A stretch of DNA of 64,000 nt from Dehalococcoidia bacterium (lineage in GTDB: Bacteria > Chloroflexota > Dehalococcoidia > Bin125): contig OZ247431.1 of assembly GCA_965232875.1 (NCBI GenBank), positions 2,102,828 to 2,166,827 on the forward strand. The letters are read 5' to 3'. The notes under the pieces were generated by a model, which did not search any database, had not been told where the DNA came from, and saw nothing but the letters and a program-made list of their open reading frames with translations. How positions within the stretch are numbered: the first letter of the stretch is position 1; the number at the start of each line of letters is the position of its first letter. The position numbers and the translations under genes are program-made. Positions 5,185-56,504 of the stretch are shown here, one piece after another.

Positions 5185-5319
5185 GGTTGCGCCCTTTCCG
5201 ACGACTTCCTCTGCCAATGTTGTTTGATTAGCCGCATACTAGGACGGACATGGTCGCTGGCGATAGCACTACTCCATGCTCGCGAAGCTCAGTAATCTGT
5301 CGATGAAGCAGGATGGGAG

Positions 5320-5607: not shown

Positions 5608-6011
5608 GCAGTCCGATTGTCGACGCTTCTGTCGTTTTGTCCTGGTTGTTCGATGACGAGGAGAGCGCAACGGCGGAAGCTGCGATGGAGCTAGTCTCTC
5701 GCGACGGCGGCGTGATTCCACAACATTGGTGCTACGAGGTCGGCAACGGGTTGGTAACAGGAGTGAGGCGGCAACGCTTGACAGCGGAAGACGCGCTGAA
5801 GAGGCTACGATCGCTGAACAGATTCCACTGGACCACGGACACCTCAACTGACCTTGAGACGGCGCTGCAATTGGCGATCGAGCATGAGCTGACACTCTAC
5901 GACGCCCTGTACCTCGAAATTGCGATTCGGCGTCAGCTCTATCTGGTGACGCTGGATGGCGATTTGGTCCGCGCCTCCCGGACAGTCGGCCTGGAAGCCC
6001 CTCTTGTTTAG
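5604..6011 (+). CDS. vapC: PIN-domain toxin (VapC family)
   Basis: 135-aa ORF. It shows the N-terminal VDASVVLSW acidic motif, an internal E, LTLYDALYLEIA and a C-terminal LVTLDGDL, which together make the PIN acidic quartet pattern. Confidence 0.8.
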   Translation: MSSPIVDASVVLSWLFDDEESATAEAAMELVSRDGGVIPQHWCYEVGNGLVTGVRRQRLTAEDALKRLRSLNRFHWTTDTSTDLETALQLAIEHELTLYDALYLEIAIRRQLYLVTLDGDLVRASRTVGLEAPLV

Positions 6012-7540
6012 CCGCCGACTCTTGACAGCTCTCGCGGCGCCAGCGATGCCCAGAAGTCTCGCTCTTCGTCGCCGGGAGCGTTGACGATCTCACAGTCGTG
6101 ATTGAGCGTCATCACGGCTCGGTCGACCGGGCTATAGGTCGGCCACTCAGGTAGATGCTCATTGCTCGGATTGCCAGTCTTGGCGAACGCGAGATACGTC
6201 TGCATCATCGTCTTGGAAAGCGACTCCAGTTCCGGCGATGCGTCGCCGCAGAACTGCTTCATGTTCTCAGCCTCGTACGTGCCCCAGATGAAGGGAATAT
6301 CGAGTGAGTGGCAACTATCCAGCTTGCCCTCGTACGCCGGAGACGGGTAATCGAAGCGATAGCTCCAGACGCTCTTAGTGTGGCGGCCATGTGCCTCAGC
6401 GGTCTTGATGGCAGGGATGCGGAACATCGAGTCAGTCATGATCGCATTCCAGACCGATGTATTGTCTGTCGGCTCGCCGCGAGCGTCCCGCGACCGCTGA
6501 TAGCGGTCAACGCCTTCAGCGGCGCGCATGCCACCGAACGGTGCAGTCGCAGCAGCGAGCAAATCGTTGTCCGACATCACCACTGTGCCAGTGCTGGACG
6601 GATTGAAGAGATTGAACTCGTCCTTCGTATGGCCGATCAAGAGCGGCATGCCCTTGGTCTGGATGCCCGCGCCTATGCGTGCCTCGGCGTCGAGACCCAG
6701 CGAGTATCCGTCGGCAACTGGGCCGAAACGCGCGCCGCCGAATCCGCCGCCAGTCAGCTCCACCTGGTAGTCGAGAATGTCGCCAGCGTCGACTCGGCGC
6801 ATCCGCTCCGGATCGTCCCAGCCGCCGAACCGAAGCAGGAACTTCTCCGCGACGGCCCGCGCCTCGACCTTGGTGATTGTGGGAATCAGCGAACCGCTCA
6901 TCGGAATCGCTTTGTCGAATGCTCCGGTCGCAGCCGGCATGGCCATCAGGTGGGCGATATCGAATCCGCCGGCCGACTGTCCGAAGACAGTGACGTTGTT
7001 GGCGTCGCCGCCGAACGCTTCGATCTCGCGACGCACCCAGAACAGTGCCGCTGTTTGGTCGAGCAACCCCTCATTGCCGTAGGCGCCCAGAATCGGGGCA
7101 TGCATCCAGCCGAACACGCCGAGGCGATAGTTCAAGGTGACCACAACTACGTTGCCGGTCATCGCCAGATGTTTGCCGTCGATCCGCGGCTGCGTGCCCG
7201 AACCAACGGTGTTGCCGCCGCCGTGGATCCAGACCATCACCGGACGCTTGCGGTCGTCGCAGGCCGGTGTCCAGACGTTGAGGTAGAGACAGTCCTCGGA
7301 TTGGGTCTGGGCGGGAATTCCGATCAGGTCGCCAATGCCTCCGGGAAGCTGGCGCTGCACTGCCGAGGCCGAGAACTGAGTCGCGTCGTAAACGCCGTCC
7401 CAGGGCTGCATCGGCTCGGGCGGGCGCCACCGGAGATCGCCGACCGGCGGCTGAGCAAAGGGAACGCCGCGAAACACAACGCAACCGTCGTCTTCTGCGC
7501 CCTGCAGTCTGCCCAACGATGTATTGGTTTGAGTTGGCAT
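6008..7540 (-). CDS. Type-B carboxylesterase / lipase family (para-nitrobenzyl-esterase-like)
   Basis: The ORF track gives 6008-7639. I prefer the ATG at 7540 (MPTQTNTSLGRLQG) because the longer version runs into the repeat cluster. VMVWIHGGGNTVGSG forms the oxyanion hole and FGQSAGG is the nucleophile elbow. The stop overlaps the vapC stop by 4 nt, in convergent orientation. Confidence 0.85.
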   Translation of the reverse strand: MPTQTNTSLGRLQGAEDDGCVVFRGVPFAQPPVGDLRWRPPEPMQPWDGVYDATQFSASAVQRQLPGGIGDLIGIPAQTQSEDCLYLNVWTPACDDRKRPVMVWIHGGGNTVGSGTQPRIDGKHLAMTGNVVVVTLNYRLGVFGWMHAPILGAYGNEGLLDQTAALFWVRREIEAFGGDANNVTVFGQSAGGFDIAHLMAMPAATGAFDKAIPMSGSLIPTITKVEARAVAEKFLLRFGGWDDPERMRRVDAGDILDYQVELTGGGFGGARFGPVADGYSLGLDAEARIGAGIQTKGMPLLIGHTKDEFNLFNPSSTGTVVMSDNDLLAAATAPFGGMRAAEGVDRYQRSRDARGEPTDNTSVWNAIMTDSMFRIPAIKTAEAHGRHTKSVWSYRFDYPSPAYEGKLDSCHSLDIPFIWGTYEAENMKQFCGDASPELESLSKTMMQTYLAFAKTGNPSNEHLPEWPTYSPVDRAVMTLNHDCEIVNAPGDEERDFWASLAPRELSRVGG

Positions 7541-7926: not shown

Positions 7927-8568
7927 TCAACAGCCAATGCAGAGGATGGTGCGTCCGTTTCGATCCTGGAGCGGACGCGCGTTGGGACCCCCCGTGAGCT
8001 CCTGTAGTTGCTCGACCTGCCGCTGCGAAACAGTACCGGGCGATTGGACCAGGTACCACTGCACCGGCTCGCTGAACGGCGCGGCGGTCAGGGACCCCAC
8101 GTAGTGATAGAACGCCTCGGAGTGAGGCGCTAACTCAGCGGACGACAGCGCTGGCACGACGCCTGCTTCCTCGCCCTCTGGCGGCGATTCATCGATGATC
8201 CGTTGCAGGCCGTCGTCCGGTTGGCCGAGGCGGTGGATCACGCCGACGACCAGCAACTCATCGCTCTCATTGACGTGGACGAAGTGCACTTCCGCGTCAA
8301 ACTCCTCGCCGTCAACGGTGTGCTCGGCCGGTGTGTGCCAGTGCAGTTGTAGCAGGCGGTACGACTCGTCGCCGACTTGCAGCTCGCTACCACGAGAGAA
8401 ATGGATCATGACAAAGCCCTGGGAGCGCTCAACGCGCGCGGCCTCGCTGGCGTATGTCAGGTTCGGCGCCGTTGCATCCGATTGCACCCAATCGCTGATA
8501 TCGATCGGTGACTGGCCCTGTCCAAGCTTGTCTGGCGTCATCGTTGCGCCCCGTTCCTGCGCTGCCAT
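7927..8568 (-). CDS. Alpha-class carbonic anhydrase (short, no signal peptide visible)
   Basis: 213-aa ORF. GQSPIDI, LQLHWHTPAEH and EVHFVH supply the three alpha-CA zinc histidines in canonical context. Confidence 0.85.
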   Translation of the reverse strand: MAAQERGATMTPDKLGQGQSPIDISDWVQSDATAPNLTYASEAARVERSQGFVMIHFSRGSELQVGDESYRLLQLHWHTPAEHTVDGEEFDAEVHFVHVNESDELLVVGVIHRLGQPDDGLQRIIDESPPEGEEAGVVPALSSAELAPHSEAFYHYVGSLTAAPFSEPVQWYLVQSPGTVSQRQVEQLQELTGGPNARPLQDRNGRTILCIGC

Positions 8569-8656
8569 CGTGATATGAGCGGTAGATTATCGTGCGACTG
8601 CTGAGTGTTACCGCACAGGCGAACACAGAATTCGACAACCTCGCGAGGACGGAACG

Positions 8657-9529
8657 ATGGCCGAGCAACAATACGAAACGTATGACCCGGCAGTCCACAA
8701 CCGATCGACGCCACAGGAGATCTTTGGTCCGGTGGTCAAGGTGGACAAGCTCGAGGACGGCGGGATCTACCTGATCACGCTGAACCGACCGCACCGACTG
8801 AACTCGATCGGCGACGGATTGAGCGACGCTCTGTACGACGCGTTTGTCGAGTATCGCGACGATCCCAATGCTCGCTGCGCCGTGCTCACCGGCGCCGGTC
8901 GCGCCTTCTGCGCCGGAGCCGACCTGATCAACACTGCTGAGACCCGCGAAGCCGAACGCGATGGTGGGACGGGAAATGCGCCAATCATCAGTCGGCGCAA
9001 GAATCCGGTGCCGCTCTCGGAGACGCTCGGCCTGTGGAAGCCAACGATCGCAGCGATCAATGGCTGGGCCGTCGCCGGCGGATTCATGTACGCGATGCAG
9101 TGCGATATTCGGATCATGTCGGAAGAAGCCAAAATCGGGATCGCCGAGACGCGCTGGAACATGGGCGGAGCCGGCTGGATGGCGCCGCTGACGAGGCAGA
9201 TCGGCCTGGGATCGGCGATGGAGCTGACGCTCTGGGGCGACACGCAATACGACGCCGAACGCTGTTACCAACTCGGATGGGTGCAGCGGGTCGTGCCACG
9301 CGAGATGTTGCTGGAAACTGCGCTGCAGTACGCCCGTCGCATGTTGTACCTGGCGCCTCGCGAAGTGCGAAACATCAAGCAGGCGTTGTATCGCGGCTAC
9401 CACATGGAGCCGATCATGGCGCAGCAGTTCGGCTCCGCGATCGAGCAGAATCTGCAAGGCATGAACGACTCCATCGAAGGTCCTAAGGCATTCTCCGAGA
9501 AGCGCCGCCCAAAGTTCACGGATACCTAG
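8657..9529 (+). CDS. Enoyl-CoA hydratase/isomerase (crotonase) family
   Basis: 290-aa ORF. VLTGAGRAFCAGADL and INGWAVAGGFMYAMQCDIRI are crotonase oxyanion-hole motifs. Confidence 0.85.
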   Translation: MAEQQYETYDPAVHNRSTPQEIFGPVVKVDKLEDGGIYLITLNRPHRLNSIGDGLSDALYDAFVEYRDDPNARCAVLTGAGRAFCAGADLINTAETREAERDGGTGNAPIISRRKNPVPLSETLGLWKPTIAAINGWAVAGGFMYAMQCDIRIMSEEAKIGIAETRWNMGGAGWMAPLTRQIGLGSAMELTLWGDTQYDAERCYQLGWVQRVVPREMLLETALQYARRMLYLAPREVRNIKQALYRGYHMEPIMAQQFGSAIEQNLQGMNDSIEGPKAFSEKRRPKFTDT

Positions 9530-9532
9530 GCC

Positions 9533-9853
9533 ATGACGACGATCACAACACTACGCATCGTCTGGCACGAACAGACATCGGACTTCGGCGAACCGATGCC
9601 CTGGTTCGGCTCCTGGCTGGTGGGCGACGGTGAGTCCGAGGGCGACTGGTTCCACTCCGGTCGCGGAGCGGCTGATACCTCACACGAACCGCCCGATGAC
9701 GCGGTCGGCGTACGGCTGCGCTTCTGGCCGTCGGAAGGACTCGATCCGGAGTACATCGACCTGCCGCTGCCTGAAAGCGGGCTGATCGAGACGATCGCGC
9801 TGGATTACGACCATCCAGGCCCGCACTCGCGGTTGGACCGGTCGCTGCTCTAA
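9533..9853 (+). CDS. Hypothetical protein
   Basis: 106-aa ORF starting 4 nt after the crotonase stop, on the same strand. I recognise no motif. It is followed directly by family A repeat copy 1. Confidence 0.35.
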   Translation: MTTITTLRIVWHEQTSDFGEPMPWFGSWLVGDGESEGDWFHSGRGAADTSHEPPDDAVGVRLRFWPSEGLDPEYIDLPLPESGLIETIALDYDHPGPHSRLDRSLL

Positions 9854-9920
9854 GGCCTGTTCACATGGATGCTGAGATCCCATACATGGCGCACCTGGAT
9901 TCCCAGCTCCCCCTTGCAGA

Positions 9921-10135
9921 GATTGATGCATAACTCCCCTTCTCCCCCCCCCTTTGCGAGGGAGATGCCGAAGGCAGAGGGGGGGTCCCTGCCTGTTGGC
10001 ACTATCTGGTCGTCGCCTGCCGACCCCCTCTGTCACTCCGTGACATCTCCCCCCGCAAGGGGGGGAGAGGGGACTCGAAGGATATGCATCAGTCTCTCGC
10101 AGGGGGAGCTGCCGAAGGCTGAGGGGGTCCCGCTC
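9921..10135. repeat. Family A palindromic MITE-like element, copy 1 (about 1.5 units)
   Basis: Left arm ctccccttctccc...gcgagggagatgccgaaggcagaggggg; right arm ccccctctgtcactccgtgacatctccccccgcaaggggggga. It is flanked by the inverted pair tgatgcata / tatgcatca. An extra partial left arm (gcagggggagctgccgaaggctgaggggg) lies at about 10100-10128. Confidence 0.75.
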
Positions 10136-10293
10136 CCGATCCGCAGCCTTGTGTAACCTCCGTCCGTCGTTCCACACTCCATGTGAACAGACCCTAGCTC
10201 GTTGCCAAGGAACTCGCGGCCCTCCGGTGCCGCCCCAAAGCTGGATACACTGGGTGTTGCAGTAGGACGGTATCGGCTCCGAAGGAGACAAGC

Positions 10294-10524
10294 ATGCAGC
10301 CAATGGACCGGATCACTATGGACCCAGCCGTCATGGGTGGCAAGGCTTGCATCCGTGGGATGCGGGTTACCGTTGGTACGGTGGTAGGCCTCTTGGCGGC
10401 TGGTCGCTCACGTTCTGAAATCCTCGAGTCCTATCCCTACATCGAGTCAGAGGATATCGATCAATCCTTGACCTACGCTGCCTGGCGGTTGGAGGAACGC
10501 GAAGTTCCCCTCCCGTCGACATGA
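10294..10524 (+). CDS. DUF433-domain antitoxin-like protein
   Basis: 76-aa ORF. ITMDPAVMGGKACIRGMRVTVGTVVGLLAAGRSRSEILESYPYIESEDI is the DUF433 signature pattern. Confidence 0.75.
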   Translation: MQPMDRITMDPAVMGGKACIRGMRVTVGTVVGLLAAGRSRSEILESYPYIESEDIDQSLTYAAWRLEEREVPLPST

Positions 10525-10664
10525 GACCAAAGCTGCTCGTCGATATGAACCTCTCGCCCCAATGGATTCCAGTGCTGCAGCATGGCTGGCCGGCGGTGCA
10601 CTGGTCCGACGTAGGCGATCTTCCCTTGCTCAGGAGCTCGATGCCTCCGCTAGACTCTCACTAA
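10521..10664 (+). pseudogene. Truncated DUF5615 (PIN-like) toxin partner of DUF433
   Basis: The ATG overlaps the DUF433 stop (ATGA). It translates to MRPKLLVDMNLSPQWIPVLQHGWPAVHWSDVGDLPLLRSSMPPLDSH*, only 47 aa. The first 33 or so residues match the DUF5615 N-terminus, but family members are roughly 110-120 aa. Confidence 0.5.
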
Positions 10665-10708
10665 CTATCGAGTGATGGCCTGCTCTGTCGGGTTTGGAAG
10701 GAATTTGC

Positions 10709-11929
10709 ATGGTTACCGCTGAACGTCCCGCAGCCGATCCGGTTGGATATGAGATCCCCGAGCATCGCACCCTGACCCCAGGCACCGAGGGCTGGACCCG
10801 CACGGCGCGACCGGAAGACCCGAAGAAGTACTTCATGGTCTCGGCCGACTGCCACGTGCATGAGCCGGTGGACCTCTGGGAGCGCCGAATCGACGAGAAG
10901 TACCGGCACCGGCTGCCTCGCATTGAGGTCGACGAGGATGGCGTCCGCTGGCAGGTGACCGAGGGTCACCGCCCGACCAAGATTCGCGACCTGAAGCTGG
11001 CCGGCGAGGACCTGGTCCGCGACAAGCACGGCAACGCCTTCCCTGAGGAGCGCTTCCGTGACATGGACCGTGATGGCGTTGACGCCGAGATCATCTTCCC
11101 CAACAAGGGTCTCTCGATGTGGGCGACCGACGACCCGGTCTTCGCCAACGCGATGTGCAGCGCCTGGAACGACTGGGCCTGGGAGACCTTCGGCGACACC
11201 TACGACCGTTCGTCGCCGCTGGCTTGCGTCGCGACCGGCGACATCCCCGGCGCGATTGCTGAAATCCAGCGCTCGGCCGAGCGCGGCTTCCGCGGTTTCT
11301 CCTTCCCGGCCAAGCCGGTCTGGGGGCCGACCGGTGAAGACTCTCGCAACTACAACCTGCCTGAGTTCGACCCGCTCTGGGCGGCGGTCGAAGAGACCGG
11401 CCTGCCGATCACGTTCCACGTCTCGACCGGACGCGACCCGCGCGGCGCGCGCGGCAATGGCGGCGCAGTCACCAACTACGTCTTCCACTCGCTGGCGATG
11501 ACGATGGAGCCAATCATCAACATGTGCGCGTCGGGAGTCTTCCAGCGCTTCCCGGACCTGCGCGCCGGCACGATCGAAGCAGGTATCGGCTGGATTCCCT
11601 GGGCGCTGACCGCCATGGACGAGGCCTACCACAAGCACCACATGTGGGCCTTCCCCAAGCTCGAAGGCCTGCCCTCGGACTACTACAGATCGCATTGCTT
11701 CGGCTCTTTCCAGGACGATGCACCGGGCATTGACCTGGCCAAGAAGTACGACTTGATCGACAATCTGCTCTGGGCCAACGACTACCCGCATCACGAGGGC
11801 TCCTGGCCGCATTCGGCGGCGGCGATCGAACGCACGATGGGCGACCTGACGGACGTGGAACGGGCCAAGATCCTTGGCCTGAATGCGGCCCGTCTGTTCA
11901 ACTTCGACGTGCCTGACTCGAAGCGGTAG
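10709..11929 (+). CDS. Amidohydrolase-2 family metal-dependent hydrolase/decarboxylase (ACMSD-like)
   Basis: The ORF track gives 10694-11929. The ATG at 10709 follows GGAAGGA. It has DCHVHEP near the N-terminus, and NDYPHHEGSWP with AKILGLNAARLF at the C-terminus. Confidence 0.8.
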   Translation: MVTAERPAADPVGYEIPEHRTLTPGTEGWTRTARPEDPKKYFMVSADCHVHEPVDLWERRIDEKYRHRLPRIEVDEDGVRWQVTEGHRPTKIRDLKLAGEDLVRDKHGNAFPEERFRDMDRDGVDAEIIFPNKGLSMWATDDPVFANAMCSAWNDWAWETFGDTYDRSSPLACVATGDIPGAIAEIQRSAERGFRGFSFPAKPVWGPTGEDSRNYNLPEFDPLWAAVEETGLPITFHVSTGRDPRGARGNGGAVTNYVFHSLAMTMEPIINMCASGVFQRFPDLRAGTIEAGIGWIPWALTAMDEAYHKHHMWAFPKLEGLPSDYYRSHCFGSFQDDAPGIDLAKKYDLIDNLLWANDYPHHEGSWPHSAAAIERTMGDLTDVERAKILGLNAARLFNFDVPDSKR

Positions 11930-17311: not shown

Positions 17312-18031
17312 ATGGCCGCAGATCTCAGTCAGGTACGTGCACTCACATTCGATGTCTTCGGCACCGTGGTCGACTGGCGCTCGTCCGTCTCGGCCGAGGT
17401 GGCGTCGTTCCTGAACCGGCACGGCGTCGAGGCCGATGCCGGCATGTTCACCGACCGTTGGCGTCGCGAGGGCTACGCGGGCGGGATGCGGCTCGTCCGC
17501 AACGGCGAGCTGCCGTTCCAGACGGCTGATGGGTTGCATCTGCGGATGCTGCGCATGCTGCTGGCGGAGCTCGGCATTGATGCTGAGGAATCCGAAGTCC
17601 TCGAACTCAATCGAGCTTGGCATCGTCTGCATCCGTGGGTCGACTCTCCAGGTGGACTGCAACGTCTGCGCTCGCGATTCGTGGTCTCCACTCTGTCGAA
17701 TGGCAATATCGAATTGCTGGTCAATATGGCCAAGTTCGGTGGACTGCCTTGGGACTGTGTCCTATCGGCAGAAGTAACCGATGCATTCAAGCCCCAACCA
17801 CAGTGCTACCGGCGAGCGGCCGAGTTGCTCGGATGTGAGTCGCATGAGGTGATGATGGTTGCCGCGCACCAGGGAGACCTCCTCGCTGCCGCCCAAACCG
17901 GCATGAGAACCGCTTTCGTGCCAAGACCGCATGAGTCAGGGCCAAACTTCCCAGTCGATCTCACGCCCGACCCCTCGTTCGACATCGTCGCAACCGACTT
18001 CCACGACCTCGCCGCACATCTCGACTGCTGA
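17312..18031 (+). CDS. HAD-superfamily hydrolase, type II haloacid-dehalogenase-like
   Basis: 239-aa ORF. LTFDVFGTVVDW is HAD motif I. STLSNGN, the FKPQPQCY region and the later MVAAHQGDL fit the 2-haloacid dehalogenase subfamily. Confidence 0.7.
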   Translation: MAADLSQVRALTFDVFGTVVDWRSSVSAEVASFLNRHGVEADAGMFTDRWRREGYAGGMRLVRNGELPFQTADGLHLRMLRMLLAELGIDAEESEVLELNRAWHRLHPWVDSPGGLQRLRSRFVVSTLSNGNIELLVNMAKFGGLPWDCVLSAEVTDAFKPQPQCYRRAAELLGCESHEVMMVAAHQGDLLAAAQTGMRTAFVPRPHESGPNFPVDLTPDPSFDIVATDFHDLAAHLDC

Positions 18032-18041
18032 CCCCTCAATC

Positions 18042-18131
18042 CCCTCTCCCTCTGGGAGAGGGCTAGGGTGAGGGTCCCTCCGACGCCTCGACCACCTCCT
18101 CGTCATTCCCGCGCTCGACGCGGGAATCTCG
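18042..18131. repeat. Two terminator-like repeat hairpins (a PLPEGEG-type hairpin plus a family B unit)
   Basis: ccctctccctctgggagagggctagggtgaggg spans 18042-18075 and cgtcattcccgcgctcgacgcgggaatctcg spans 18101-18131. Both lie between convergent genes. Confidence 0.6.
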
Positions 18132-18189
18132 CCCCGTTCTGCACGAACTTCGCGCAAGAGTGGCGAGAGTTGAGGAACCCACTTTGGCA

Positions 18190-19032
18190 TTACGACATTC
18201 CTTCAGGCGATACGACGACCTCTTGCCCACAGTAATCGATGCCCTCTTGGGCATGGGTTTTGAACAGGTTGCTGATGTCAAGTTTGGCCGTCCGCCAGGA
18301 GTTTTCGCCCCAGATCGTGACGTACAGGTTGTGCCCATCCCGTAGTTCCTCGATCATGCCGGAGGCAAAAGGAGCGTCAGCCGCAAAGAAGTCGTTGTTC
18401 TGGATGTCGCGACCGTTCCACTGCGCTGCGCGTGGTCGGTCGCCGTCGATCCACCATGCGATCTCATAACCATCCACGGTTGGAGGCACATCCGTGAGTA
18501 AAACAGCTTGCCGCAAAGAACTACTGCAAATCATGTAGAAACTCACAATGTTCTCGGTGTTGGACGTGGGAGACCTGCCGTCAATGAGCTTCATCCTCTT
18601 GCTGACTTGGGCATATCCATCCGCGGGGTCGTAGCTGTAGTCGAATCCCCACAACACACCGCTTCTCTCCTTCGGCCTCTCCCAGTCTGCGGGCATTTCG
18701 GGCGGCTCAAGCGTAGAGGCTGGCAAACCAAACTCGGGCAATGGTACAGCGACTATCAAGTCGAAAGACTCAGAAGTCCAAATCGGAAATTCGGCACCCA
18801 GATTAGGGACCGTGGCGTTCCATTGGGTGATCGGGGTTTCCAGCCACTCGCCGTTCAGAAACTGGTGAAACGCTAGTGAAGTCGTGCCGTCTTCATTGCT
18901 GCTGGCTTCGATCCTGACACTAACATCCTGCGTTGGATCTTCTGCTCCGGCGAGCATCAATGATCCCACTACGGCGAGCAAAGCCGCCAGAATCCCGACA
19001 AACAGATGATTCGTTCTGCGCAACATGTCCAA
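18190..19032 (-). CDS. Hypothetical secreted/anchored protein
   Basis: 280-aa ORF with an N-terminal hydrophobic signal (LFVGILAALLAVVGSLMLAGA|ED). I recognise no motif. By eye the composition is lower in G+C than the neighbouring genes. Confidence 0.5.
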   Translation of the reverse strand: MDMLRRTNHLFVGILAALLAVVGSLMLAGAEDPTQDVSVRIEASSNEDGTTSLAFHQFLNGEWLETPITQWNATVPNLGAEFPIWTSESFDLIVAVPLPEFGLPASTLEPPEMPADWERPKERSGVLWGFDYSYDPADGYAQVSKRMKLIDGRSPTSNTENIVSFYMICSSSLRQAVLLTDVPPTVDGYEIAWWIDGDRPRAAQWNGRDIQNNDFFAADAPFASGMIEELRDGHNLYVTIWGENSWRTAKLDISNLFKTHAQEGIDYCGQEVVVSPEGMS

Positions 19033-19039
19033 GGCCCAC

Positions 19040-19725
19040 TTCCAGGTACGGGATGGTCTGTTGAAACACAGCGCTCAGCCCGTCGGTTACGCAGAGAAGA
19101 AGGGAACACGGCCAGACCACTCCCTCTTGCTTCGATGCAATCAATTGGCGAGTTTGGCGCTGTGTGGCGGAGCCAGTCTACCCGAGCCAAACCCTGACAC
19201 CGCATCCCCATGGCGTTACAATGAGAATATGTGTTCTCTCCTACCGAAAGGAGCCGACGACAATGTCCGTCTCAGCCCGTCGCAACATCAGCACGCCGCA
19301 CAACCGCCCGCGAACGGAATCGAACAGAATCGAACAAGTCGCCATGTCTCCGCACCTGAAAAAACCTGGAAAATGCTGAAACTCCAAACTTCACGATCCC
19401 CCGTAAAACACTGGATATCGTGCCCCGTTTCCCTGTTTCTCCGCCAAGAAAAAAAGTTCACCGAAAACCTGAAACCCGCCAACCGTTCTACGCCCATCCC
19501 CGCCTCCGAGCGGGGACCCGCACCAGTTCTGGAATCAGTCGAGGCTCCCCAAGAGAAACACTGCGACCATCTGGATCAATCCAGCGAAATCTGGACGAAT
19601 CTGGACAAATCTGGACGTTTCCGAACACTCTTCGAGCCAATTCCCAGCCCAAAGCGCCACTTCCCGACAACTCAGTCGAAAACTCCCGCGCTCAAAGTCT
19701 CCCACTAGCCTGAACAGGTCAGAAC
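19040..19725 (+). repeat. Family D dispersed low-GC non-coding element, copy D1 (longest)
   Basis: It shares these modules with 31825-32090 (same orientation) and 56505-57150 (inverted): caatgagaatatg; cgaacagaatcgaacaa; cacctgaaaaaacctggaaaatgctgaaac; aaaaaaagttcaccgaaaacctgaaac; and three copies of aatctggac at 10-bp spacing (19587-19616). The 60-nt line at 19381-19440 is 50 % G+C. Confidence 0.55.
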
Positions 19726-19743
19726 AACACATTGGAGTCCCCC

Positions 19744-20541
19744 ATGTCCCTCAACCCCGACGCGTACACCACCATCGACATCGACAAGCGCTCCGACGGT
19801 GTAACCGTCGCCACCCTCAATCGTCCCGAGAAGCTCAACGCCGTCAACTCGGCGATGCATCGTGAGCTGTCCACCCTGCCTGTTGACGCCAATCGCGATC
19901 CTGAGGTGCGCGTCCTGGTGCTGACCGGCGCCGGTCGGGCATTTTGCGCCGGCGGCGACTTCTCGGCCGACCGTGATGAGCCGATGGGCGGGCACTATCT
20001 GAACCGGATGAACGAGGCGCGGCTGATCGTCGACAACTGGCTCGACTGCGAGAAGCCGGTGATCTGCGCGGTCAATGGCTATGCCCTCGGCCTGGGCGCG
20101 ACCGTCGCCTTGCTGGCCGATGTCGTCTACATCGGCCGCTCGGGAGTCCTCGGCGACACGCACGTCAACATGGGTATCGGCGCCGGCGACGGCGGCGGTG
20201 TCATCTGGCCGATGCTGGTCGGACCGTCTCGCGCCAAGTATTTCCTGATGACCGGCGAGCATGTCCGAGCAGAGCAAGCCAAGGACATGGGACTGGTCCA
20301 GGATGTGGTTGAGGACGACGAGTTGATGTCAACAACGCTGGCGCTGGCCGAGCGGCTGTCGAATGGTCCGCTGGGCGCGATTTCGGCGTCGAAAGTGCCG
20401 ATCAACAAGTGGATCAAGCACGTCTCGAACATGGTCCTGCCACTGTCGCTCTCAATGGAAGAGAGGACGATGGCAGGCCCGGATGCGTCCGAGGCGCAAG
20501 CGGCGTTCCGCGAGAAGCGACAGCCAAGCTACCGCCGTTAA
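19744..20541 (+). CDS. Enoyl-CoA hydratase/isomerase (crotonase) family
   Basis: The ORF track gives 19732 (TTG). The ATG at 19744 follows GGAG. VLTGAGRAFCAGGDF and VNGYALGLGATVALLADV are crotonase motifs. Confidence 0.85.
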   Translation: MSLNPDAYTTIDIDKRSDGVTVATLNRPEKLNAVNSAMHRELSTLPVDANRDPEVRVLVLTGAGRAFCAGGDFSADRDEPMGGHYLNRMNEARLIVDNWLDCEKPVICAVNGYALGLGATVALLADVVYIGRSGVLGDTHVNMGIGAGDGGGVIWPMLVGPSRAKYFLMTGEHVRAEQAKDMGLVQDVVEDDELMSTTLALAERLSNGPLGAISASKVPINKWIKHVSNMVLPLSLSMEERTMAGPDASEAQAAFREKRQPSYRR

Positions 20542-28558: not shown

Positions 28559-28645
28559 GCCGAGGTGGCGGAATGGTAGACGCGATGGTCTCAAAAACCA
28601 TTGGGCGTAAAGCCCGTGCCGGTTCGAGTCCGGCCCTCGGTACCA
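28559..28645 (+). tRNA. tRNA-Leu (anticodon CAA)
   Basis: GCCGAGGTGGCGGAATGGTAGACGCGATGGTCTCAAAAACCATTGGGCGTAAAGCCCGTGCCGGTTCGAGTCCGGCCCTCGGTACCA. It has a 7-bp acceptor stem (G1-U72), anticodon loop CTCAAAA, a long variable arm, T-loop TTCGAGT and an encoded CCA. Confidence 0.85.
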
Positions 28646-28650: not shown

Positions 28651-28724
28651 TGCCGAGTAGTGTAACGGTAGCACTAGGGACTTTGGATCCCTCAGTTCAG
28701 GTTCGAATCCTGGCTCGGCAGCCA
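28651..28724 (+). tRNA. tRNA-Gln (anticodon UUG)
   Basis: TGCCGAGTAGTGTAACGGTAGCACTAGGGACTTTGGATCCCTCAGTTCAGGTTCGAATCCTGGCTCGGCAGCCA. It has U1-A72, discriminator G, anticodon loop CTTTGGA and an encoded CCA. Confidence 0.85.
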
Positions 28725-28759
28725 CCGGCCAACAGGCGTTATAGTTTCCTAGTGCGTAG

Positions 28760-30484
28760 GTGATGATGGTGATAACACTTCCGCAGGATCCAGCTAGGCT
28801 AATCCTCAAGAACATATCCTTCCGTCTCCGGCCTCTCTTGACTGGCAACGAATTCGTGACCTACTGCAAGGCACGGAATCTGAACATAGATCGTGAACGA
28901 CTTCTGCGCCTCGAGAGACAGAGGCTCTTCATGCCCTTGGCCCGAGTATCGAGGCCCTACAAGGGCACGGGATCCATTTTCATCAGCAACGAGACGGCGG
29001 ATGCTTCACATTGGGAGGAGTTCGTTGTCGAGACCTATGCGGACGATGCCGATTACCCTGTTCTAAGCATTGAAGACTCAGGGAATGTGCCCTTCTACTC
29101 AGCGTTTCAGCTCTGGGATCTGGACGAGGTTCTCAGCTCTCTTAACTACAATATCGAACTCGATGCTGTCGCCGAGGGCGAGGGGCCTACGGACGGCGTG
29201 TCGATCGAGTTGCATACTGCGAGGGAACGACTTCGATATGCAGCCTCATGGCGGTCGGAGACGCGAAAAGCTGCAGCCGTGCTGGCGCAGTATGTGACCA
29301 ATGCCTACATGCCGAAAGCTCTGAGCAATAGGCGGACCGTTTCGATTACGAGATCTAACAGCTACGGAGGTGCGCTATCCTTCGAAAGTCGGAATTGGGA
29401 TTGGCACGAGTTCAAGCAGAAGTGGAATCCTAGTTCTGTGACATCCCACTTTCAACTAGACAAGAGCACGCTCGAAGGGATTTACCGCCTTTTGCTTATG
29501 TCGATTCAAGACTGCGATCCGCTCTATGAATGGTCAAACTTTGTTCAATTCGTATCGCATCACAAGAGGGCCCAGCTGAGGGGAGACGCACTTCGAGCAG
29601 ACCTGTACAAGCAAATGGCGTTGCTGATGAAGTCTCTCTATGAGGATCTTTACGAAGATCAGGTGGAGTCCGTCGAACGAGCGCTTGGGATTCGGGCCGA
29701 AACCATGCCTGAACCGGTAGTTCAGAAGGATCCTCGACGGCATCTTGAGTTCGTGGTCAATCAGTATGAAGTGAATCCGCAGCCCAAAGTGGTGTTAATC
29801 TTGGAAGGAGAGAGCGAATCGACGTTCGTGGAGAAGTTGTGCCCGGCCCTCCTTGGCTATGGACTAGGCACGGCTGGAATCGAGATAGTAAATGTGAAAG
29901 GAGTCGGCAATGCCACGGGAAACAGGCAGCACGATAGGTACGGGGCCATTCTTAGGCTTGTTGATTATCTGCATGACCATCAGGTAGTTGTCTTTGTCGT
30001 GCTCGATCGCGAGGGTGCAGCATCAAAGCTGAAGGAGGCAGCGAAGAAACGAAAGCCCTTGTCTGGTCTGAGGAAGAAGGTGATTCCGTCGGAGCGAGTC
30101 ACGGTGTGGAGGAGGAATTTCGAGTTCGACAACTTCAGTGACACGGATATCGCAAGGGCCTTGACTGAGGCCGGTGGCGGTCGCCACACCTTCTCGCGGC
30201 AGGAGGTGGCTGATGTCAGGGAGTCCTGGCCTGATTCTCAGATCGGTAAGGTGTTCTATGCCAGGACGGGCGAGGATTTGAACAAACCGGAGTTCGCGGG
30301 ACTTCTGGCTGACCTTGTAGTAAGCCCAACATCCCGAAAGTGGCCAGAAAACAGGCCAATGGTTCGAATCCTGTTACTGGCATCAGAAGCAGGGCTGGCC
30401 AATAGGCTACCGGTGACAGACAAAGTGCGACGGCAGAATCAGCGCGTATTGGACCGTCCGTATGTGCGGGTACATAAGGGATGA
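28760..30484 (+). CDS. Hypothetical 574-aa protein: unknown N-terminal ~340 aa + C-terminal Toprim-like (OLD/RloB-type) domain
   Basis: A long uninterrupted ORF in low-GC DNA. PKVVLILEGESESTFVEKL supplies the Toprim Glu motif and HQVVVFVVLDREGAAS the second acidic motif, about 60 aa apart. There is no Walker A motif. Confidence 0.6.
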   Translation: MMMVITLPQDPARLILKNISFRLRPLLTGNEFVTYCKARNLNIDRERLLRLERQRLFMPLARVSRPYKGTGSIFISNETADASHWEEFVVETYADDADYPVLSIEDSGNVPFYSAFQLWDLDEVLSSLNYNIELDAVAEGEGPTDGVSIELHTARERLRYAASWRSETRKAAAVLAQYVTNAYMPKALSNRRTVSITRSNSYGGALSFESRNWDWHEFKQKWNPSSVTSHFQLDKSTLEGIYRLLLMSIQDCDPLYEWSNFVQFVSHHKRAQLRGDALRADLYKQMALLMKSLYEDLYEDQVESVERALGIRAETMPEPVVQKDPRRHLEFVVNQYEVNPQPKVVLILEGESESTFVEKLCPALLGYGLGTAGIEIVNVKGVGNATGNRQHDRYGAILRLVDYLHDHQVVVFVVLDREGAASKLKEAAKKRKPLSGLRKKVIPSERVTVWRRNFEFDNFSDTDIARALTEAGGGRHTFSRQEVADVRESWPDSQIGKVFYARTGEDLNKPEFAGLLADLVVSPTSRKWPENRPMVRILLLASEAGLANRLPVTDKVRRQNQRVLDRPYVRVHKG

Positions 30485-30492
30485 CCTATGGT

Positions 30493-30540
30493 TGCCCGGG
30501 CAGGGACTTGAACCAGCAAAACTAGCGGTCAACAGCCGCC
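30493..30540 (-). repeat. tRNA-Asn 3'-half-derived direct repeat, copy c (most diverged)
   Basis: tgcccgggcagggacttgaaccagcaaaactagcggtcaacagccgcc aligns with the tRNA sequence tgcccgggcaggacttgaacccgcaacctagcggttaacagccgcc. Confidence 0.7.
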
Positions 30541-30752
30541 ACCTGAGGAGCAACCAACTCGCAAGCTGGGACTGGTGTCGGATGTCCGAACTCCTTCGCC
30601 GTATCGATCCAGGGAGATATCGCAACCTGCGCTTCGCGGAGCGCCTCTTCGTAGGTGTCGCCGAGAGCCGAACAGCCGGGAAGTTCAGGAACGGCAGCTA
30701 CGTACATACGGTCTTCGTCGCTCCAGAAGATCGTGATCGCGTACTTGTGCAT
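30522..30752 (-). CDS. HicB-family antitoxin (short, no DNA-binding domain), paralog 3
   Basis: MHKYAITIFWSDEDRMYVAAVPELPGCSALGDTYEEALREAQVAISPWIDTAKEFGHPTPVP. The last 6 codons and the stop lie inside repeat copy c. Confidence 0.8.
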   Translation of the reverse strand: MHKYAITIFWSDEDRMYVAAVPELPGCSALGDTYEEALREAQVAISPWIDTAKEFGHPTPVPACELVAPQVAAVDR

Positions 30753-30866
30753 CGGTTGTAGGAGTGCCTCAACAGTGGCAGCGCTGCTAAGTGCCGAGTG
30801 AATCGAGAAGACGTGGCAGACGGCCGGATCGATAAACGGGGCTTACCTTCGAGAGCGGCCGCACTT

Positions 30867-31082
30867 TCAATTGCTCAGCGCAACAAGTTCACCGGCGGGC
30901 TGCGGAATCGGCCGGCCGATCCTCTCGGCGCCTTCGAGCCAGTAGCCAATGGCGGCCTGAGCCTGAGCGAGCGCCTCTTCGTGGCTGTCCTCATGCGCCA
31001 TACAGCCCGGCAACTCAGGAATATCCGCCACGAACACGCCGTCCTCATCGCTCCAGTAGATGGTGATTTGGTACTTGTGCAT
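30867..31082 (-). CDS. HicB-family antitoxin (short), paralog 2
   Basis: MHKYQITIYWSDEDGVFVADIPELPGCMAHEDSHEEALAQAQAAIGYWLEGAERIGRPIPQP. Confidence 0.8.
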   Translation of the reverse strand: MHKYQITIYWSDEDGVFVADIPELPGCMAHEDSHEEALAQAQAAIGYWLEGAERIGRPIPQPAGELVALSN

Positions 31083-31104
31083 GGTGGGTCGGATTCGGCG
31101 ATGA

Positions 31105-31155
31105 TGGCTGCCCGGGCAGGACTTGAACCCGCAACCTAGCGGTCAACAGCCACCC
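31105..31155 (-). repeat. tRNA-Asn 3'-half-derived direct repeat, copy b
   Basis: tggctgcccgggcaggacttgaacccgcaacctagcggtcaacagccaccc includes the CCA end. It shares the gttaac-to-gtcaac change with copy c. Confidence 0.8.
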
Positions 31156-31367
31156 GCAGGAGCCGCCTCGAACTCACATGTTGGCGCAGGAATCGGATCT
31201 CCGAATTCCCTGGCGGTGTCGATCCAGAGAGCCATGGCGACCTGTGCTTCCCGAAGGGCTTCTTCGTAGGTGTCGCCGAGGGCCGAACAGCCGGGAAGCT
31301 CAGGGACGGCAGCCACGTACATACCGTCTTCGTTGCTCCAGAAGATGTTGATCTGATACTGCAGCAT
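31143..31367 (-). CDS. hicB: HicB-family antitoxin (short), paralog 1, partner of HicA
   Basis: The ATG at 31367 is preceded by GAGGAG. The product is MLQYQINIFWSNEDGMYVAAVPELPGCSALGDTYEEALREAQVAMALWIDTAREFGDPIPAP. The stop TGA lies in the anticodon-loop part of repeat copy b. Confidence 0.8.
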   Translation of the reverse strand: MLQYQINIFWSNEDGMYVAAVPELPGCSALGDTYEEALREAQVAMALWIDTAREFGDPIPAPTCEFEAAPAGGC

Positions 31368-31378
31368 AAGTCGGCTCC

Positions 31379-31630
31379 TCAAACGTCTCTCAGGTCGTAC
31401 TTTAGCAGTGTCTTGCGAAGCTCTCGGAGTTGGTACGGTTTCGCGTCGGCTCCGATCGGCTGTAGGTTCACCTTGTCTACGACGCCAGCCATTCTGTAGG
31501 AGTGGTGACTGCCACGAATACGCTCTACAAAGCCCATTCTACTGAGAAGCGAACGGACCTCGCTGAATGGAATATTGGCGAGATGCTTACCGTCGAGAAT
31601 GCGGTTGAGCAGTCGCTGGTGGCGATTCAG
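31379..31630 (-). CDS. hicA: HicA-family toxin (start codon uncertain)
   Basis: ...LNRHQRLLNRILDGKHLANIPFSEVRSLLSRMGFVERIRGSHHSYRMAGVVDKVNLQPIGADAKPYQLRELRKTLLKYDL fits the HicA pattern as I recall it. There is no ATG or GTG between the tRNA and the conserved N-terminus. I set the 5' end at the CTG at 31630. The frame stays open to a TTG at 31690 inside tRNA-Asn. Confidence 0.6.
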   Translation of the reverse strand: MNRHQRLLNRILDGKHLANIPFSEVRSLLSRMGFVERIRGSHHSYRMAGVVDKVNLQPIGADAKPYQLRELRKTLLKYDLRDV

Positions 31631-31660
31631 AGCGGATCTCCATCCTGCGGGGTGACTTGA

Positions 31661-31736
31661 TGGCTGCCCGGGCAGGACTTGAACCCGCAACCTAGCGGTT
31701 AACAGCCGCCCGCTCTACCAATTGAGCTACCGGGCA
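31661..31736 (-). tRNA. tRNA-Asn (anticodon GUU)
   Basis: The reverse complement is TGCCCGGTAGCTCAATTGGTAGAGCGGGCGGCTGTTAACCGCTAGGTTGCGGGTTCAAGTCCTGCCCGGGCAGCCA. It has U1-A72, discriminator G, anticodon loop CTGTTAA and an encoded CCA. Confidence 0.85.
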
Positions 31737-48942: not shown

Positions 48943-51258
48943 ATGCGCAAATTGGTGCTGGCCATTGCCGTCTCGCTCGCCTTGCTCGTCGCGCTCACCG
49001 ACGCGTTGTCGGCGGAGGAACCGGCCCCGGACGCACGCGCTGTCATGCTGCAGCCTGGCGACAACCTCGTCGGCTGGGTTGCCGAGCCGATCGCGGTCGC
49101 GGACATCTTCAAAGCGATACCGCAGGCGGCGCTGATCTATCGCTGGGACGCCGACTCGCGGACGTATCAGTACGCGATCCGCGAGATTGGCGGCAATCTC
49201 GAAACGCTCCAGCCCGGCATGGCAGCCAAGATACGCATTAGCGGTAGCGAATCGGTCGAGTGGGAGCGTCCGCTGACCCCGGCCAAGTGCATGGTCACAC
49301 TCTATTCGGGCGTCAACTGGGTCGCCTGGAACGGCCGCGACGAGTGGTCGCTCGATCAGGTCGCGCGGGGCATCGGATCGTCTCTGATCAGTCTCGAGGT
49401 ACGCGGGATCGCCTATCAGCCCGACAGCGACGTCTCAGAAAAGATCGGGCCGCTCGACGGCGATACCACTATCCGTCGCGGCGACGCACTGCGTGTCACG
49501 GTCAACCGAGATCTGCGCTGGCTCCAACCAACCGGCATGATGCTGAAGATCGTCTGGAAAGGCGAGATTTCCGAGTCGGTACGGGAGGAGGTCACCACTG
49601 ACGTAAAGCGCACTTTCGATTTCTTCGCCGAGGAGTTTGCGATTGAGCCTGACTTCACTGAGACGACCCTGCTGCTGTTTGGCAGCATCGACGCTGCCGT
49701 TCAGCACGCGGAGTCAGGAGCGGAACCCAGGCCCCTGTATGCGCCGGATCATCTTCGCAGCACGTTGGAAACCGGCTGGCAGGCTGAAAAACAGCCCTGG
49801 GGTTTCTGGGCGTGGGTATGCGGTTGGCAGTCGCAACCTCCAGCAGCCTGCCATGGCCATAGGGCGGCAACTCTGGCTCACGAGTTGTTTCACGTACTGC
49901 AAGATCAACTGTCTACACGCCATCCGCATCTGTCACCGACTTGGATGAGCGAAGGGACCGCCACCTGGCTGAACTGGCGGCTGCCACCTGAGTTCGGTCA
50001 GGCGTCCTATGAGGATCAGCGTCAATGGACAATCGATCGCGTAGCGCAAACGAGTGAGCCGCTGAAGGCCGGAGAAAACGGCTTCTATCGCTGGGTCTAT
50101 GACCTCGGCTCTGTAGTAGCCGATCGTTTGGTTGAGGTGAGTGGCGTCGATGCGCTCCTCGACTTCGATCGCCTGTTGTATCCGCAGTCGATCGGCAAGG
50201 AACGACGATGGGTGCAGTTGCCTACATGGCACGAGGCGTTTGAGGCCGCGTTCGGCCTCACAGTCGCGGCGTTCTACGACGAGTTCGAGGTCTGGCGCAC
50301 TACGCTGCCTAAGACCGCGCACCAGAGAGGCAACAACCAGAACGACGTAAAGCTGTCGGGGACACTCCGCCTGAGCGATGGATCCCCGGCGGTTGGATTC
50401 ATCGCCTTCGCTCAAGAGTATGACGATGCGATTGCGATTGGGCTCGAACGAACTGCCGTTATTGAAGAAGGGGGAGCGTTCACACTCTATGTGGCCGCAA
50501 AGACGATCCAACACCTTCGACTCACGCGCGACGGCTGTACGCTCTGGCTCACCAATGATGGCCTGACAATGGCACTGCCTCAGTCAGGTCAGTACCGAGA
50601 CCTGGACACACGCGACTTGCCCAACTTGAACTTAACGCTGCCCGAGGGCGCGTGCGAGAACGAACTCAGGATTAACGTCAACAAGTTACGCGGTGACGAA
50701 CGGCAGCTTGAGCTGGACTTAGTCGCTCAGGAAACCGGGTCGAGCACATTGGCGACGCTTGGATCTTCCGGGACGTTCACGGCCTATGCGCCGAACTCAG
50801 GCGAGTACAGATTTCGCATAATAGTCGGCGGTTGTCTCCTGTGGTATCACGAAGATGGGCTGGCCGCGTCGATGCAGAGTGGACAACTGCTCTCACTCGG
50901 AGAGCAACCTGTGACAATCGATTTTCATGTTTCAGATGACCTATGCAGCCGAACGATCAGCGGTCGATTCTTCAGAGGGGAGGGTAACCCCTCCGGTGAT
51001 GGTTGGCTGGAGATAACTAGCGGTTATAGGTTTGGTAACGCTGCCTTGGCCGAAAATGGTGAGTTCACCATCGTAGTTCCGGAGTCAGAAGACTACGTGC
51101 TCAGTTACTGGACAGGCGATGAAGGATGTTGGGTTCACTACAGCCCTGCGGGCGCCACCATTGACTGGGACCAAGCCACCCCGATCACCGTCGCCGACGA
51201 GGATGTGACCGGCATCGAGTTTGTTGTGCCGAACGACCCCTCGATCCTCTGCAACTGA
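48943..51258 (+). CDS. Secreted putative gluzincin-type metalloprotease (HExxH + E) with three Cys-bracketed C-terminal modules, paralog 1
   Basis: 771-aa ORF with a signal peptide (...LTDALSA|EE). HELFH is at nt 49879-49893 and the downstream Glu (WMSEGTATW) lies 20 aa after the second His. It is collinear with 61195-63573. Confidence 0.7.
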   Translation: MRKLVLAIAVSLALLVALTDALSAEEPAPDARAVMLQPGDNLVGWVAEPIAVADIFKAIPQAALIYRWDADSRTYQYAIREIGGNLETLQPGMAAKIRISGSESVEWERPLTPAKCMVTLYSGVNWVAWNGRDEWSLDQVARGIGSSLISLEVRGIAYQPDSDVSEKIGPLDGDTTIRRGDALRVTVNRDLRWLQPTGMMLKIVWKGEISESVREEVTTDVKRTFDFFAEEFAIEPDFTETTLLLFGSIDAAVQHAESGAEPRPLYAPDHLRSTLETGWQAEKQPWGFWAWVCGWQSQPPAACHGHRAATLAHELFHVLQDQLSTRHPHLSPTWMSEGTATWLNWRLPPEFGQASYEDQRQWTIDRVAQTSEPLKAGENGFYRWVYDLGSVVADRLVEVSGVDALLDFDRLLYPQSIGKERRWVQLPTWHEAFEAAFGLTVAAFYDEFEVWRTTLPKTAHQRGNNQNDVKLSGTLRLSDGSPAVGFIAFAQEYDDAIAIGLERTAVIEEGGAFTLYVAAKTIQHLRLTRDGCTLWLTNDGLTMALPQSGQYRDLDTRDLPNLNLTLPEGACENELRINVNKLRGDERQLELDLVAQETGSSTLATLGSSGTFTAYAPNSGEYRFRIIVGGCLLWYHEDGLAASMQSGQLLSLGEQPVTIDFHVSDDLCSRTISGRFFRGEGNPSGDGWLEITSGYRFGNAALAENGEFTIVVPESEDYVLSYWTGDEGCWVHYSPAGATIDWDQATPITVADEDVTGIEFVVPNDPSILCN

Positions 51259-56498: not shown

Positions 56499-56504
56499 GT
56501 GTCC

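Follow-up and report, generated by a model that had tools for sequence, protein, structure and literature searches.

The DNA examined here is a 64,000-nt stretch of the genome of a Dehalococcoidia bacterium (assembly GCA_965232875.1, contig OZ247431.1, positions 2,102,828 to 2,166,827 of the forward strand), hereafter the window. Our subject is one gene within it, which encodes a 574-amino-acid (aa) protein predicted to join an N-terminal domain of no known family or fold to a Toprim nuclease module of the OLD type. The intact open reading frame (ORF) begins 35 nt downstream of tRNA-Gln, and its stop codon lies 3 nt ahead of the outermost of two decayed copies of the tRNA-Asn 3′ end (Table 1). 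It is the only ORF in this slot and fills it, just as an earlier reading of the letters alone (the sequence-only reading) had described; the repeat itself starts at 30488, slightly before the 30493 given there. The start codon is GTG, with other ATG or GTG starts within 9 nt, and public assemblies held no record of the exact protein.

In an Rfam scan of the slot the tRNAs were the sole RNAs, with no non-coding RNA, and no tandem repeats or repeat array were found at the locus. The two tRNA-Asn-derived copies correspond to the 3′ ~53 nt of the tRNA; a repeat search of the window revealed neither direct repeats nor an integrase flanking the 574-aa gene itself. Neither a promoter nor a terminator was predicted between tRNA-Gln and the start codon (28725-28759). 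The gene is probably expressed by read-through from the tRNA-Leu/tRNA-Gln operon, which is the simplest route. Processing of the tRNA 3′ end may release the mRNA from such a transcript, and the same tight spacing between tRNA-Gln and the start codon is seen in a related strain (L078).

Table 1. Features of the locus and of the protein (window coordinates; the last row refers to other loci of the family)
Feature	Position	Strand	Description	Basis
ORF, 574 aa	28760-30484, stop codon included	+	Intact; N-terminal domain, OLD-like Toprim and helical domain	ORF list
N-terminal domain, aa 1-340	28760-29779	+	Mostly helical; no known family or fold	
Toprim domain, aa 341-452	29780-30115	+	Predicted nuclease core	PF20469, AF2 secondary structure, Foldseek to 6njw, 6nk8, 6njv
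EGESE motif, aa 349-353	29804-29818	+	E349, Toprim glutamate, putative equivalent of BpOLD E400; E353, of E404	
D416-R-E418	30005-30013	+	Putative metal A DxD equivalent, as BpOLD D455/D457	Conservation
C-terminal helical domain, aa 453-574	30116-30481	+	Holds N453-F-E455 and K509	
N453-F-E455	within 30116-30481	+	Putative metal B motif, as BpOLD T506-x-E508	
K509	30284-30286	+	Putative equivalent of BpOLD catalytic K562	
tRNA-Leu	28559-28645	+		ARAGORN, Rfam
tRNA-Gln(UUG)	28651-28724	+	Left edge of variable segment	ARAGORN, Rfam
tRNA-Asn 3′ end, outermost decayed copy	30488-30540	.	Right edge of the gene's slot	Repeat families D3, D5, D6
HicB-like genes, three paralogs	30522-30752, 30867-31082, 31143-31382	-	DNA copies 64-79% alike	
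tRNA-Asn 3′ end, second decayed copy	31102-31157			Repeat search
tRNA-Asn	31661-31736	-		ARAGORN, Rfam
Triad loci	L018, L021, L023, L043, ~8300-11750; L063, from ~8660		Toprim copy truncated in L063; helix-turn-helix ORF checked in the other four	

The exact 3′ 40-mer of the window's tRNA-Gln is present in three metagenome contigs. Two relatives (L080 and L081) have just 230 nt between tRNA-Gln and tRNA-Asn, with room taken by one hicB-like gene and no 574-aa gene. Homology between the window and the empty-site relative L080 stops at the tRNA-Gln 3′ end; beyond tRNA-Asn, their RNase D-like proteins are 98% identical (441/452). A different cargo of 888 nt, comprising another small ORF and hicB, occupies the interval in L079. 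In L078 we found an 89% identical ortholog arranged as in the window, with the same tRNA-Gln, Toprim gene, tRNA-Asn repeat and hicB junctions up to the contig end inside hicB. The window's own interval spans 2.9 kb (28725-31660) and carries the Toprim gene, three hicB genes and one hicA gene. At least four states of cargo are seen at the tRNA-Gln/tRNA-Asn site, a hypervariable hot spot, and the 574-aa gene belongs to the accessory genes: because near-identical relatives lack it at this very site, it represents strain-variable cargo.

The composition of the gene also sets it apart. Its G+C content is 53.5%, as against 62.6±2.0% for the 35 other window ORFs of at least 250 aa (z = -4.5), which makes it the lowest among the 36 long ORFs, and G+C at third codon positions is 61.3% versus 74.8±5.3% (z = -2.5). 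The suggestion of horizontal acquisition, made at first from hand counts of a few lines, is borne out by this atypical composition together with the empty sites in near-identical relatives. Other 1-kb bins of low G+C (0.57-0.58, window mean 0.615) lie at 18001-20000, where the minus-strand ORF 18190-19032 has 55% G+C, and at 50001-51000, 56001-57000 and 62001-63000; these may be further acquired segments.

The two modules of the protein

Structure prediction and fold searches were run on both halves of the protein. The full-length AlphaFold2 (AF2) model, built from the family alignment, has a predicted local distance difference test score (pLDDT) of 85.4 and a predicted template modelling score (pTM) of 0.83. 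In its C-terminal part, strands predicted at 344-348, 374-378, 410-415 and 447-449 alternate with helices, giving the four-stranded parallel sheet flanked by helices of a Toprim domain. The strand-1 glutamate, E349, follows strand 344-348, and the acidic motif D416-x-E418 follows the third strand, 410-415, with Glu replacing the second Asp. In Foldseek, the best five matches in the PDB were C-terminal regions of Class 2 OLD proteins from Xanthomonas and Burkholderia (probability 1.0, E = 4e-4 to 1.5e-3, target-normalised TM score 0.53-0.63, 229-242 columns), the 229-column alignments spanning whole OLD C-terminal regions of 198-208 aa. Known structures of such regions consist of a Toprim and a helical domain (PMC6755086).

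Sequence models point in the same direction. The Pfam family OLD-like_TOPRIM (PF20469) scored 22.5 bits on the full protein (alignment aa 344-385), just under the cut-off of 23.2, and 24.6 bits, above the cut-off, on the C-terminal half alone; all of 37 homologs examined match this family, and distant members reach 25.6-30.8 bits. An OLD-type Toprim domain, which the sequence-only reading had recognised, is thereby supported by profile, fold and conserved acidic motifs alike. The EGESE and D-x-E motifs named in that reading are present, at aa 349-353 and 416-418, though they lie 67 and not about 60 aa apart. Its second proposed likeness, to the RloB and AbiL type of nuclease, did not hold: neither RloB nor DUF4435 matched, and DUF4276 matched below threshold only.

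The catalytic residues of BpOLD are E400, E404, D455, D457, T506, E508 and K562 (PMC6755086). Their putative counterparts in the 574-aa protein (Table 1) show the same spacing, with 4 positions from the first glutamate to the second and 54 aa from E455 to K509, as from E508 to K562. Conservation was read from an alignment of 86 family sequences, in which G350, E353, E375, D416, E455 and K509 are invariant and E349 and E418 are at least 90% conserved, while position 453 varies among S, T and N, with C in some members. The acidic residues are conserved among homologs, and the protein appears to possess the full two-metal set of a Class 2 OLD nuclease: E349 and D416-x-E418 for metal A, E353 and [S/T/N]453-x-E455 for metal B, and K509. 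The isolated C-terminal region of BpOLD and its active-site mutants have been used in DNA-cleavage assays in vitro (PMC6755086). Because the isolated region cut DNA, an OLD module free of its ATPase can be catalytically competent (PMC6755086).

The N-terminal 340 residues, in which the sequence-only reading had recognised nothing, indeed found no match in Pfam, NCBIfam, PADLOC or PDB sequences, and a PDB profile search with the first 110 aa was equally negative. With the N-domain model, Foldseek detected no fold match in the PDB (best E = 4.7). A degenerate ABC ATPase was considered for this domain and rejected, as no ABC ATPase appeared among the Foldseek matches although TsOLD and GajA are in the library, and the Walker A motif GxxxxGK[ST] occurs in 0 of 86 family members. 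The polar residues E52, R62, S114, Q117, Q177, R192, D253, N334 and N339 are invariant. One stretch, aa 29-75, is predicted to form a helix-helix-hairpin with the sequence RLxRLERLGLFxP, a pattern compatible with a MerR-type winged helix, and may serve as a lead only. When this pattern was aligned by hhalign to CueR (AIRFYEEKGLVTPP), the probability was 0.9%; with no PDB profile or fold match either, a MerR-like winged helix is statistically unsupported.

An exhaustive HMMER search with a profile of the N-domain yielded 824 clusters at E ≤ 1e-3. We scanned the ten most divergent or unusually long members: nine have at least 535 aa, enough for both modules, and seven show a detectable OLD-like Toprim match (four above threshold, three below), the remaining three having no Pfam match. 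Candidates for a shorter, Toprim-only architecture turned out to be cuts at contig ends or a split gene, and that architecture was rejected. Because divergent members are long enough for both modules and the short forms are contig-end or split genes, the N-domain and the Toprim module are, to judge from these sequences, one fixed architecture.

The family and its neighbourhoods

A word-indexed search returned 116 homologs, nearly all of them full length at 550-610 aa. Some of their database records bear the name 'TOPRIM nucleotidyl transferase/hydrolase domain-containing protein', which means that the Toprim assignment had already been made. A survey of 185,579 species genomes gave 70 loci, distributed over Chloroflexota, Actinomycetota, Alpha-, Gamma- and Deltaproteobacteria, Nitrospirota, Cyanobacteria, Acidobacteriota, Verrucomicrobiota and others, a rare and patchy distribution as expected of horizontally moving genes. 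Compared with two orthologs, the 574-aa gene gave ratios of nonsynonymous to synonymous substitution rates (dN/dS) of 0.25 and 0.15, with 0.18-0.29 for the N-terminal and 0.12 for the C-terminal half, and the same arrangement is kept in a strain diverged by dS = 0.2. On the evidence of these substitutions the gene is functional, not a remnant, and both of its halves are under purifying selection.

The defining feature of OLD proteins, an N-terminal ABC ATPase with Walker A and B motifs, is absent from the 574-aa protein, which has no match to AAA_15, AAA_21 or AAA_23 in Pfam. No ORF with a P-loop lies within 4 kb of the gene in the window. Across the family, P-loop neighbours within 4 kb occur at 8 of 73 loci; they are too rare and heterogeneous for an ATPase partner, and ABC-ATPase-like neighbours (AAA_15/AAA_21, matching the GajA and AriA models) occur at 2 of 67. 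The earlier observation that neither the protein nor its surroundings hold an ATPase extends in this way from the window to the family, with no conserved ATPase neighbour in 76 loci. Nor did all-against-all clustering of the ORFs from these 76 loci uncover a conserved partner of any other kind, as no family is present in more than five loci. Genes of similar size downstream of the Parvularcula and Pseudoxanthomonas copies, tried as a shared partner, are unrelated to each other. Matches to helicase-type Pfam families (ResIII) were restricted to 2 of 66 upstream neighbours.

The nearest sizeable neighbours are dominated by restriction-modification (RM) genes of the MmeI/Type IIG, Type I, Type III and Type ISP kinds, along with defence, toxin-antitoxin (TA) and mobile-element genes; DrmMI, Dsr2, PifA, SoFic, KAP NTPase, HipA, PIN, Fic, SocA, TmtA, integrases and transposases are among the others. 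Among adjacent genes encoding 150 aa or more, about one quarter match RM, TA or PADLOC models. PADLOC matches were obtained for ~16 of 66 adjacent proteins versus ~3 of 54 distal ones (ORFs 7-10 kb away in the same loci), a semi-quantitative comparison in which the counts are lower bounds from family-level tables and models may overlap on one protein. The neighbours are mostly RM, TA and conjugative-element genes. The 574-aa gene is a plausible, credible candidate for a single-gene defence or conflict system, and one that is open to experiment. The sequence-only reading had called the gene's position typical of defence islets; this stands as regards the defence-type neighbours, which recur family-wide, but not as regards the tRNA and hic genes, whose adjacency is local. 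Indeed, a family-wide association with tRNA genes was rejected, as these lie within 10 kb at only 10 of 60 loci.

Individual loci illustrate the mobile setting. The Parvularcula copy resides on an island with an integrase, ArdA and TraG-like genes. At the closest homolog on a long contig (L001, 2727-5951; 74% identity), the next gene encodes a 1075-aa SACS/NOV_C protein, itself a candidate defence gene that matches PADLOC TmtA models at E 3e-61. At five loci (Table 1) the Toprim gene is the third member of a triad with an HTH_31 gene and a gene for a HipA-like kinase, the reading frames overlapping (by 4 bp in L018 and L021) or abutting. An ICEclc/PAPI-1-type conjugative element carries the triad as inserted cargo, with its DUF4400 gene on one side and its RAQPRD gene on the other; the transfer-module genes around the triad include TraD/TraG, DUF4400, RAQPRD, DUF2976 and TraC. 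This arrangement hints at a functional link between the HipA-like kinase and the Toprim nuclease.

The triad kinase matches the PADLOC mad2 model at E 1e-49, and matches to mad2, mad3 and mad4 raised membership in MADS as a lead. It was rejected: Mad4 is a small DUF4276 protein, and the mad2-like kinases, which flank five loci, are hipBA-like cargo of integrative conjugative elements (ICEs) and not part of a mad operon. The three PADLOC matches are better read as reflecting the HipA-like kinase and the shared Toprim fold. On the window protein itself, the PADLOC mad4 model gave E = 0.047 and DUF4276 13.3 bits against a cut-off of 30.2, with weak sub-threshold matches in 15 of 37 members. The RloB Pfam model matched neither the window protein nor any of the 37 members. 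A search of BFVD for similar folds returned no significant match, an RloB-like protein appearing at E 0.4 and probability 0.47. For a PARIS AriB there was likewise little to be seen, with no DUF4435 match at E ≤ 1 in the 37 members and AriA-like neighbours at only 2 of 67 loci.

Among known systems, the family most resembles Class 2 OLD and GajA (6NK8, 6NJW), its best fold matches, in which a Toprim domain is likewise followed by a helical domain that supplies the metal B glutamate and the lysine. The order of catalytic residues, the spacings from E to E and from E to K, the Pfam OLD-like_TOPRIM match and the occurrence in defence islands are shared as well. Unlike these proteins, the family has no N-terminal ABC ATPase, the fold of its N-domain being unrelated; it carries DxE where they carry DxD, and sequence profiles do not connect the two. 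A UvrD-like GajB helicase, the neighbour of GajA in Gabija, is not found adjacent to the gene in 76 loci. The Class 1 OLD proteins (P2 Old, Thermus scotoductus OLD and E. coli YbjD) are also single genes with an OLD-type Toprim effector, but they are fusions of ATPase and Toprim without the helical insert, whereas here an unrelated domain replaces the ATPase. By all computational signs the protein would work like an OLD-type nuclease, but it lacks the ATPase that defines OLD.

PARIS AriB, MADS Mad4 (DUF4276) and RloB/AbiLii share with the family a Toprim polypeptide without an ATPase domain of its own. They depend, however, on an adjacent ABC ATPase (AriA, Mad3 and AbiLi/RloA, respectively), and none is conserved here. 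These three are small Toprim effectors of roughly 200-300 aa. The DUF4276 Pfam model has 192 positions, and AriB is put at 35 kDa. In Retron-Eco2, a Toprim effector is likewise fused to a sensing or regulatory module other than an ATPase; that module is a reverse transcriptase (RT) with multicopy single-stranded DNA (PMC12405507), whereas here there is no RT and no non-coding RNA. The searchable literature yielded no description of the architecture joining the N-domain to Toprim, PADLOC 2.0 contains no model for it, and the N-domain is missing from both Pfam and NCBIfam.

Beside the gene, the three HicB-like genes and a marginal HicA-like gene (Pfam score 24.9, below the threshold of 27) are interleaved with the two decayed tRNA-Asn copies over 30488-31736. 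With no integrase left, this segment looks like stacked leftovers of serial integrations. The longest hicA ORF starts at 31690, overlapping the tRNA-Asn gene, and its actual start is probably internal. A weak Rfam match to group II intron D1-D4-4 at 31558-31690 on the minus strand (19.8 bits, gathering score 49, E 0.19) overlaps hicA and the tRNA-Asn 3′ end and is most likely due to chance.

Function of the gene and rival explanations

On balance we think it probable that the gene encodes a self-contained OLD-type nuclease that operates without an ATPase, is gated by a new sensor domain and serves in defence or in conflict among mobile elements. The ATPase has been described as the sensor and regulator in OLD, Gabija and PARIS. 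The N-domain occupies the place of this ABC ATPase and may have taken over its regulatory job; in the full-length model it is predicted to pack with the nuclease into one structure. In an uninfected cell it would hold the nuclease inactive or off-target. Because a transcript arising downstream of tRNA genes is likely constitutive, some autoinhibition or specificity would be needed. On sensing an invader, by way of a phage or plasmid protein, a DNA structure or a modification state, the N-domain would free or direct the nuclease. The Toprim of P2 Old acts as an abortive tRNase and AriB likewise cuts tRNA. The active Toprim site of the 574-aa protein might nick or degrade DNA, as in BpOLD and GajA, or cut tRNA in the manner of these two, and cleavage would block the invader or abort the infection. 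The gene itself moves as a single-gene cassette among defence islands and ICEs. More tentatively, we propose that the N-domain may be a new infection sensor that gates an OLD-type Toprim without nucleotide hydrolysis, and that the proteins could constitute a new single-gene immune family.

Several points weigh against this view. All the support for it is computational, and the role of the N-domain, whose stand-alone model is of moderate confidence (pLDDT 75.7), is one that we infer outright. The metal A motif is DxE and not the canonical DxD; the correspondence with BpOLD residues derives from motif order, spacing and the fold match rather than from a residue-level structural alignment; and sequence profiles of the whole protein or its C-terminal half reached no OLD entry in the PDB. 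Unlike many defence genes, the family has no relatives that we could find in IMG/VR, INPHARED phages or PLSDB plasmids. The control for defence context is crude, being based on family-level and not per-protein counts. A partner encoded at an unlinked site is possible, and the 4-bp overlap with the HipA-like kinase gene in one clade suggests that autonomy may not apply everywhere. Finally, ~10% of genomic copies are truncated, interrupted or split: partial copies lie on long contigs at seven loci (L048, L059, L063, L068, L073, L074 and L075), one copy has an in-frame stop (L016) and another is split into the ORFs 6001-7050 and 5292-5972 (L077). Such damage could mean that a costly or toxic gene is often inactivated, or could stem from faulty assembly of long-read metagenome-assembled genomes.

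The mobile setting could also be explained if the gene were not anti-phage but a factor of selfish stabilisation or competition between elements, attacking rival plasmids or ICEs or killing cells that lose the element, and working with or restrained by neighbouring TA-type genes such as HipBA. The triads inside the ICE transfer modules of five loci, with their 4-bp overlaps in L018 and L021, the Parvularcula island with its integrase, ArdA and TraG-like genes, the frequency of TA neighbours, the hicAB remnants adjoining the window locus and the failure to find phage-borne copies in IMG/VR and INPHARED would all suit such a role. We nevertheless regard it as unlikely: most loci have no adjacent TA or ICE gene, there is no conserved partner, PLSDB contributed no plasmid copies, the neighbours most often seen are RM and other anti-phage genes, and the slot in the window leaves no room for an antitoxin gene or RNA. 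In mechanism this role overlaps that of the gated defence nuclease and differs in the target only.

A further explanation holds the protein to be the effector half of a two-part system, inert alone and dependent on a sensor or ATPase gene at another place in the genome, in the way that AriB needs AriA. OLD, GajA, AriB, Mad4/DUF4276 and RloB have all been described as coupled to ABC ATPases, and ABC-ATPase-like (AAA_15/AAA_21) genes do neighbour the family at the two loci mentioned above. Defence partners, however, are almost always adjacent, and here even the most widespread neighbour is limited to at most 5 of 76 loci; P-loop genes nearby are few and of mixed kinds, a large, conserved and co-evolving domain of 340 aa already stands in the ATPase position, and the gene transfers as a single cassette. 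We consider a missing half quite improbable.

RNase M5, DnaG and RecR contain Toprim domains as well (PMC6755086), and the gene lies directly 3′ of two tRNA genes with which it is probably co-transcribed. A housekeeping function in nucleic-acid processing, be it an RNase M5-like maturase of rRNA or tRNA or a repair nuclease with tRNA genes as chance neighbours, is very unlikely all the same. Near-identical strains do without the gene, which is confined to 70 loci among the 185,579 species genomes, spread over many phyla; tRNA adjacency is limited to 10 of 60 loci, the composition is atypical and ~10% of copies are truncated. The neighbourhoods differ from locus to locus and abound in defence and mobile-element genes. 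Least credible of all is a decaying, non-functional OLD/GajA remnant that lost its ATPase, which the fold match to the Class 2 OLD C-terminal region and a locus full of decayed integration remnants might evoke, but which is at odds with a full-length ORF, intact catalytic residues, dN/dS of 0.15-0.25 with constraint on both halves, an N-domain conserved in 824 clusters that neither sequence nor fold identifies as a degenerate ABC ATPase, and retention of the same arrangement at dS = 0.2. Both the housekeeping and the remnant explanation are in conflict with the empty sites, with the patchiness of the family and with the signs of selection.

OLD-type Toprim nucleases are recurrent immune effectors, found in P2 Old, Gabija, PARIS and retrons. 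The literature describes them as regulated by ABC ATPases, Retron-Eco2 being the exception that we met (PMC12405507). If its product is active, the 574-aa gene would be a compact addition to the known defence or conflict genes, would bring a new sensor domain to light and would offer a natural experiment on how a Toprim nuclease is kept safe and then triggered without ATP. The family would add a model that current defence-annotation libraries lack, and the presence or absence of the gene among strains at the two-tRNA hot spot provides a natural comparison for ecological tests. Should the N-domain truly be a sensor, the ABC ATPase, regarded as the signature regulator of nucleases of the OLD, Gabija and PARIS types, would prove replaceable wholesale by an unrelated fold.

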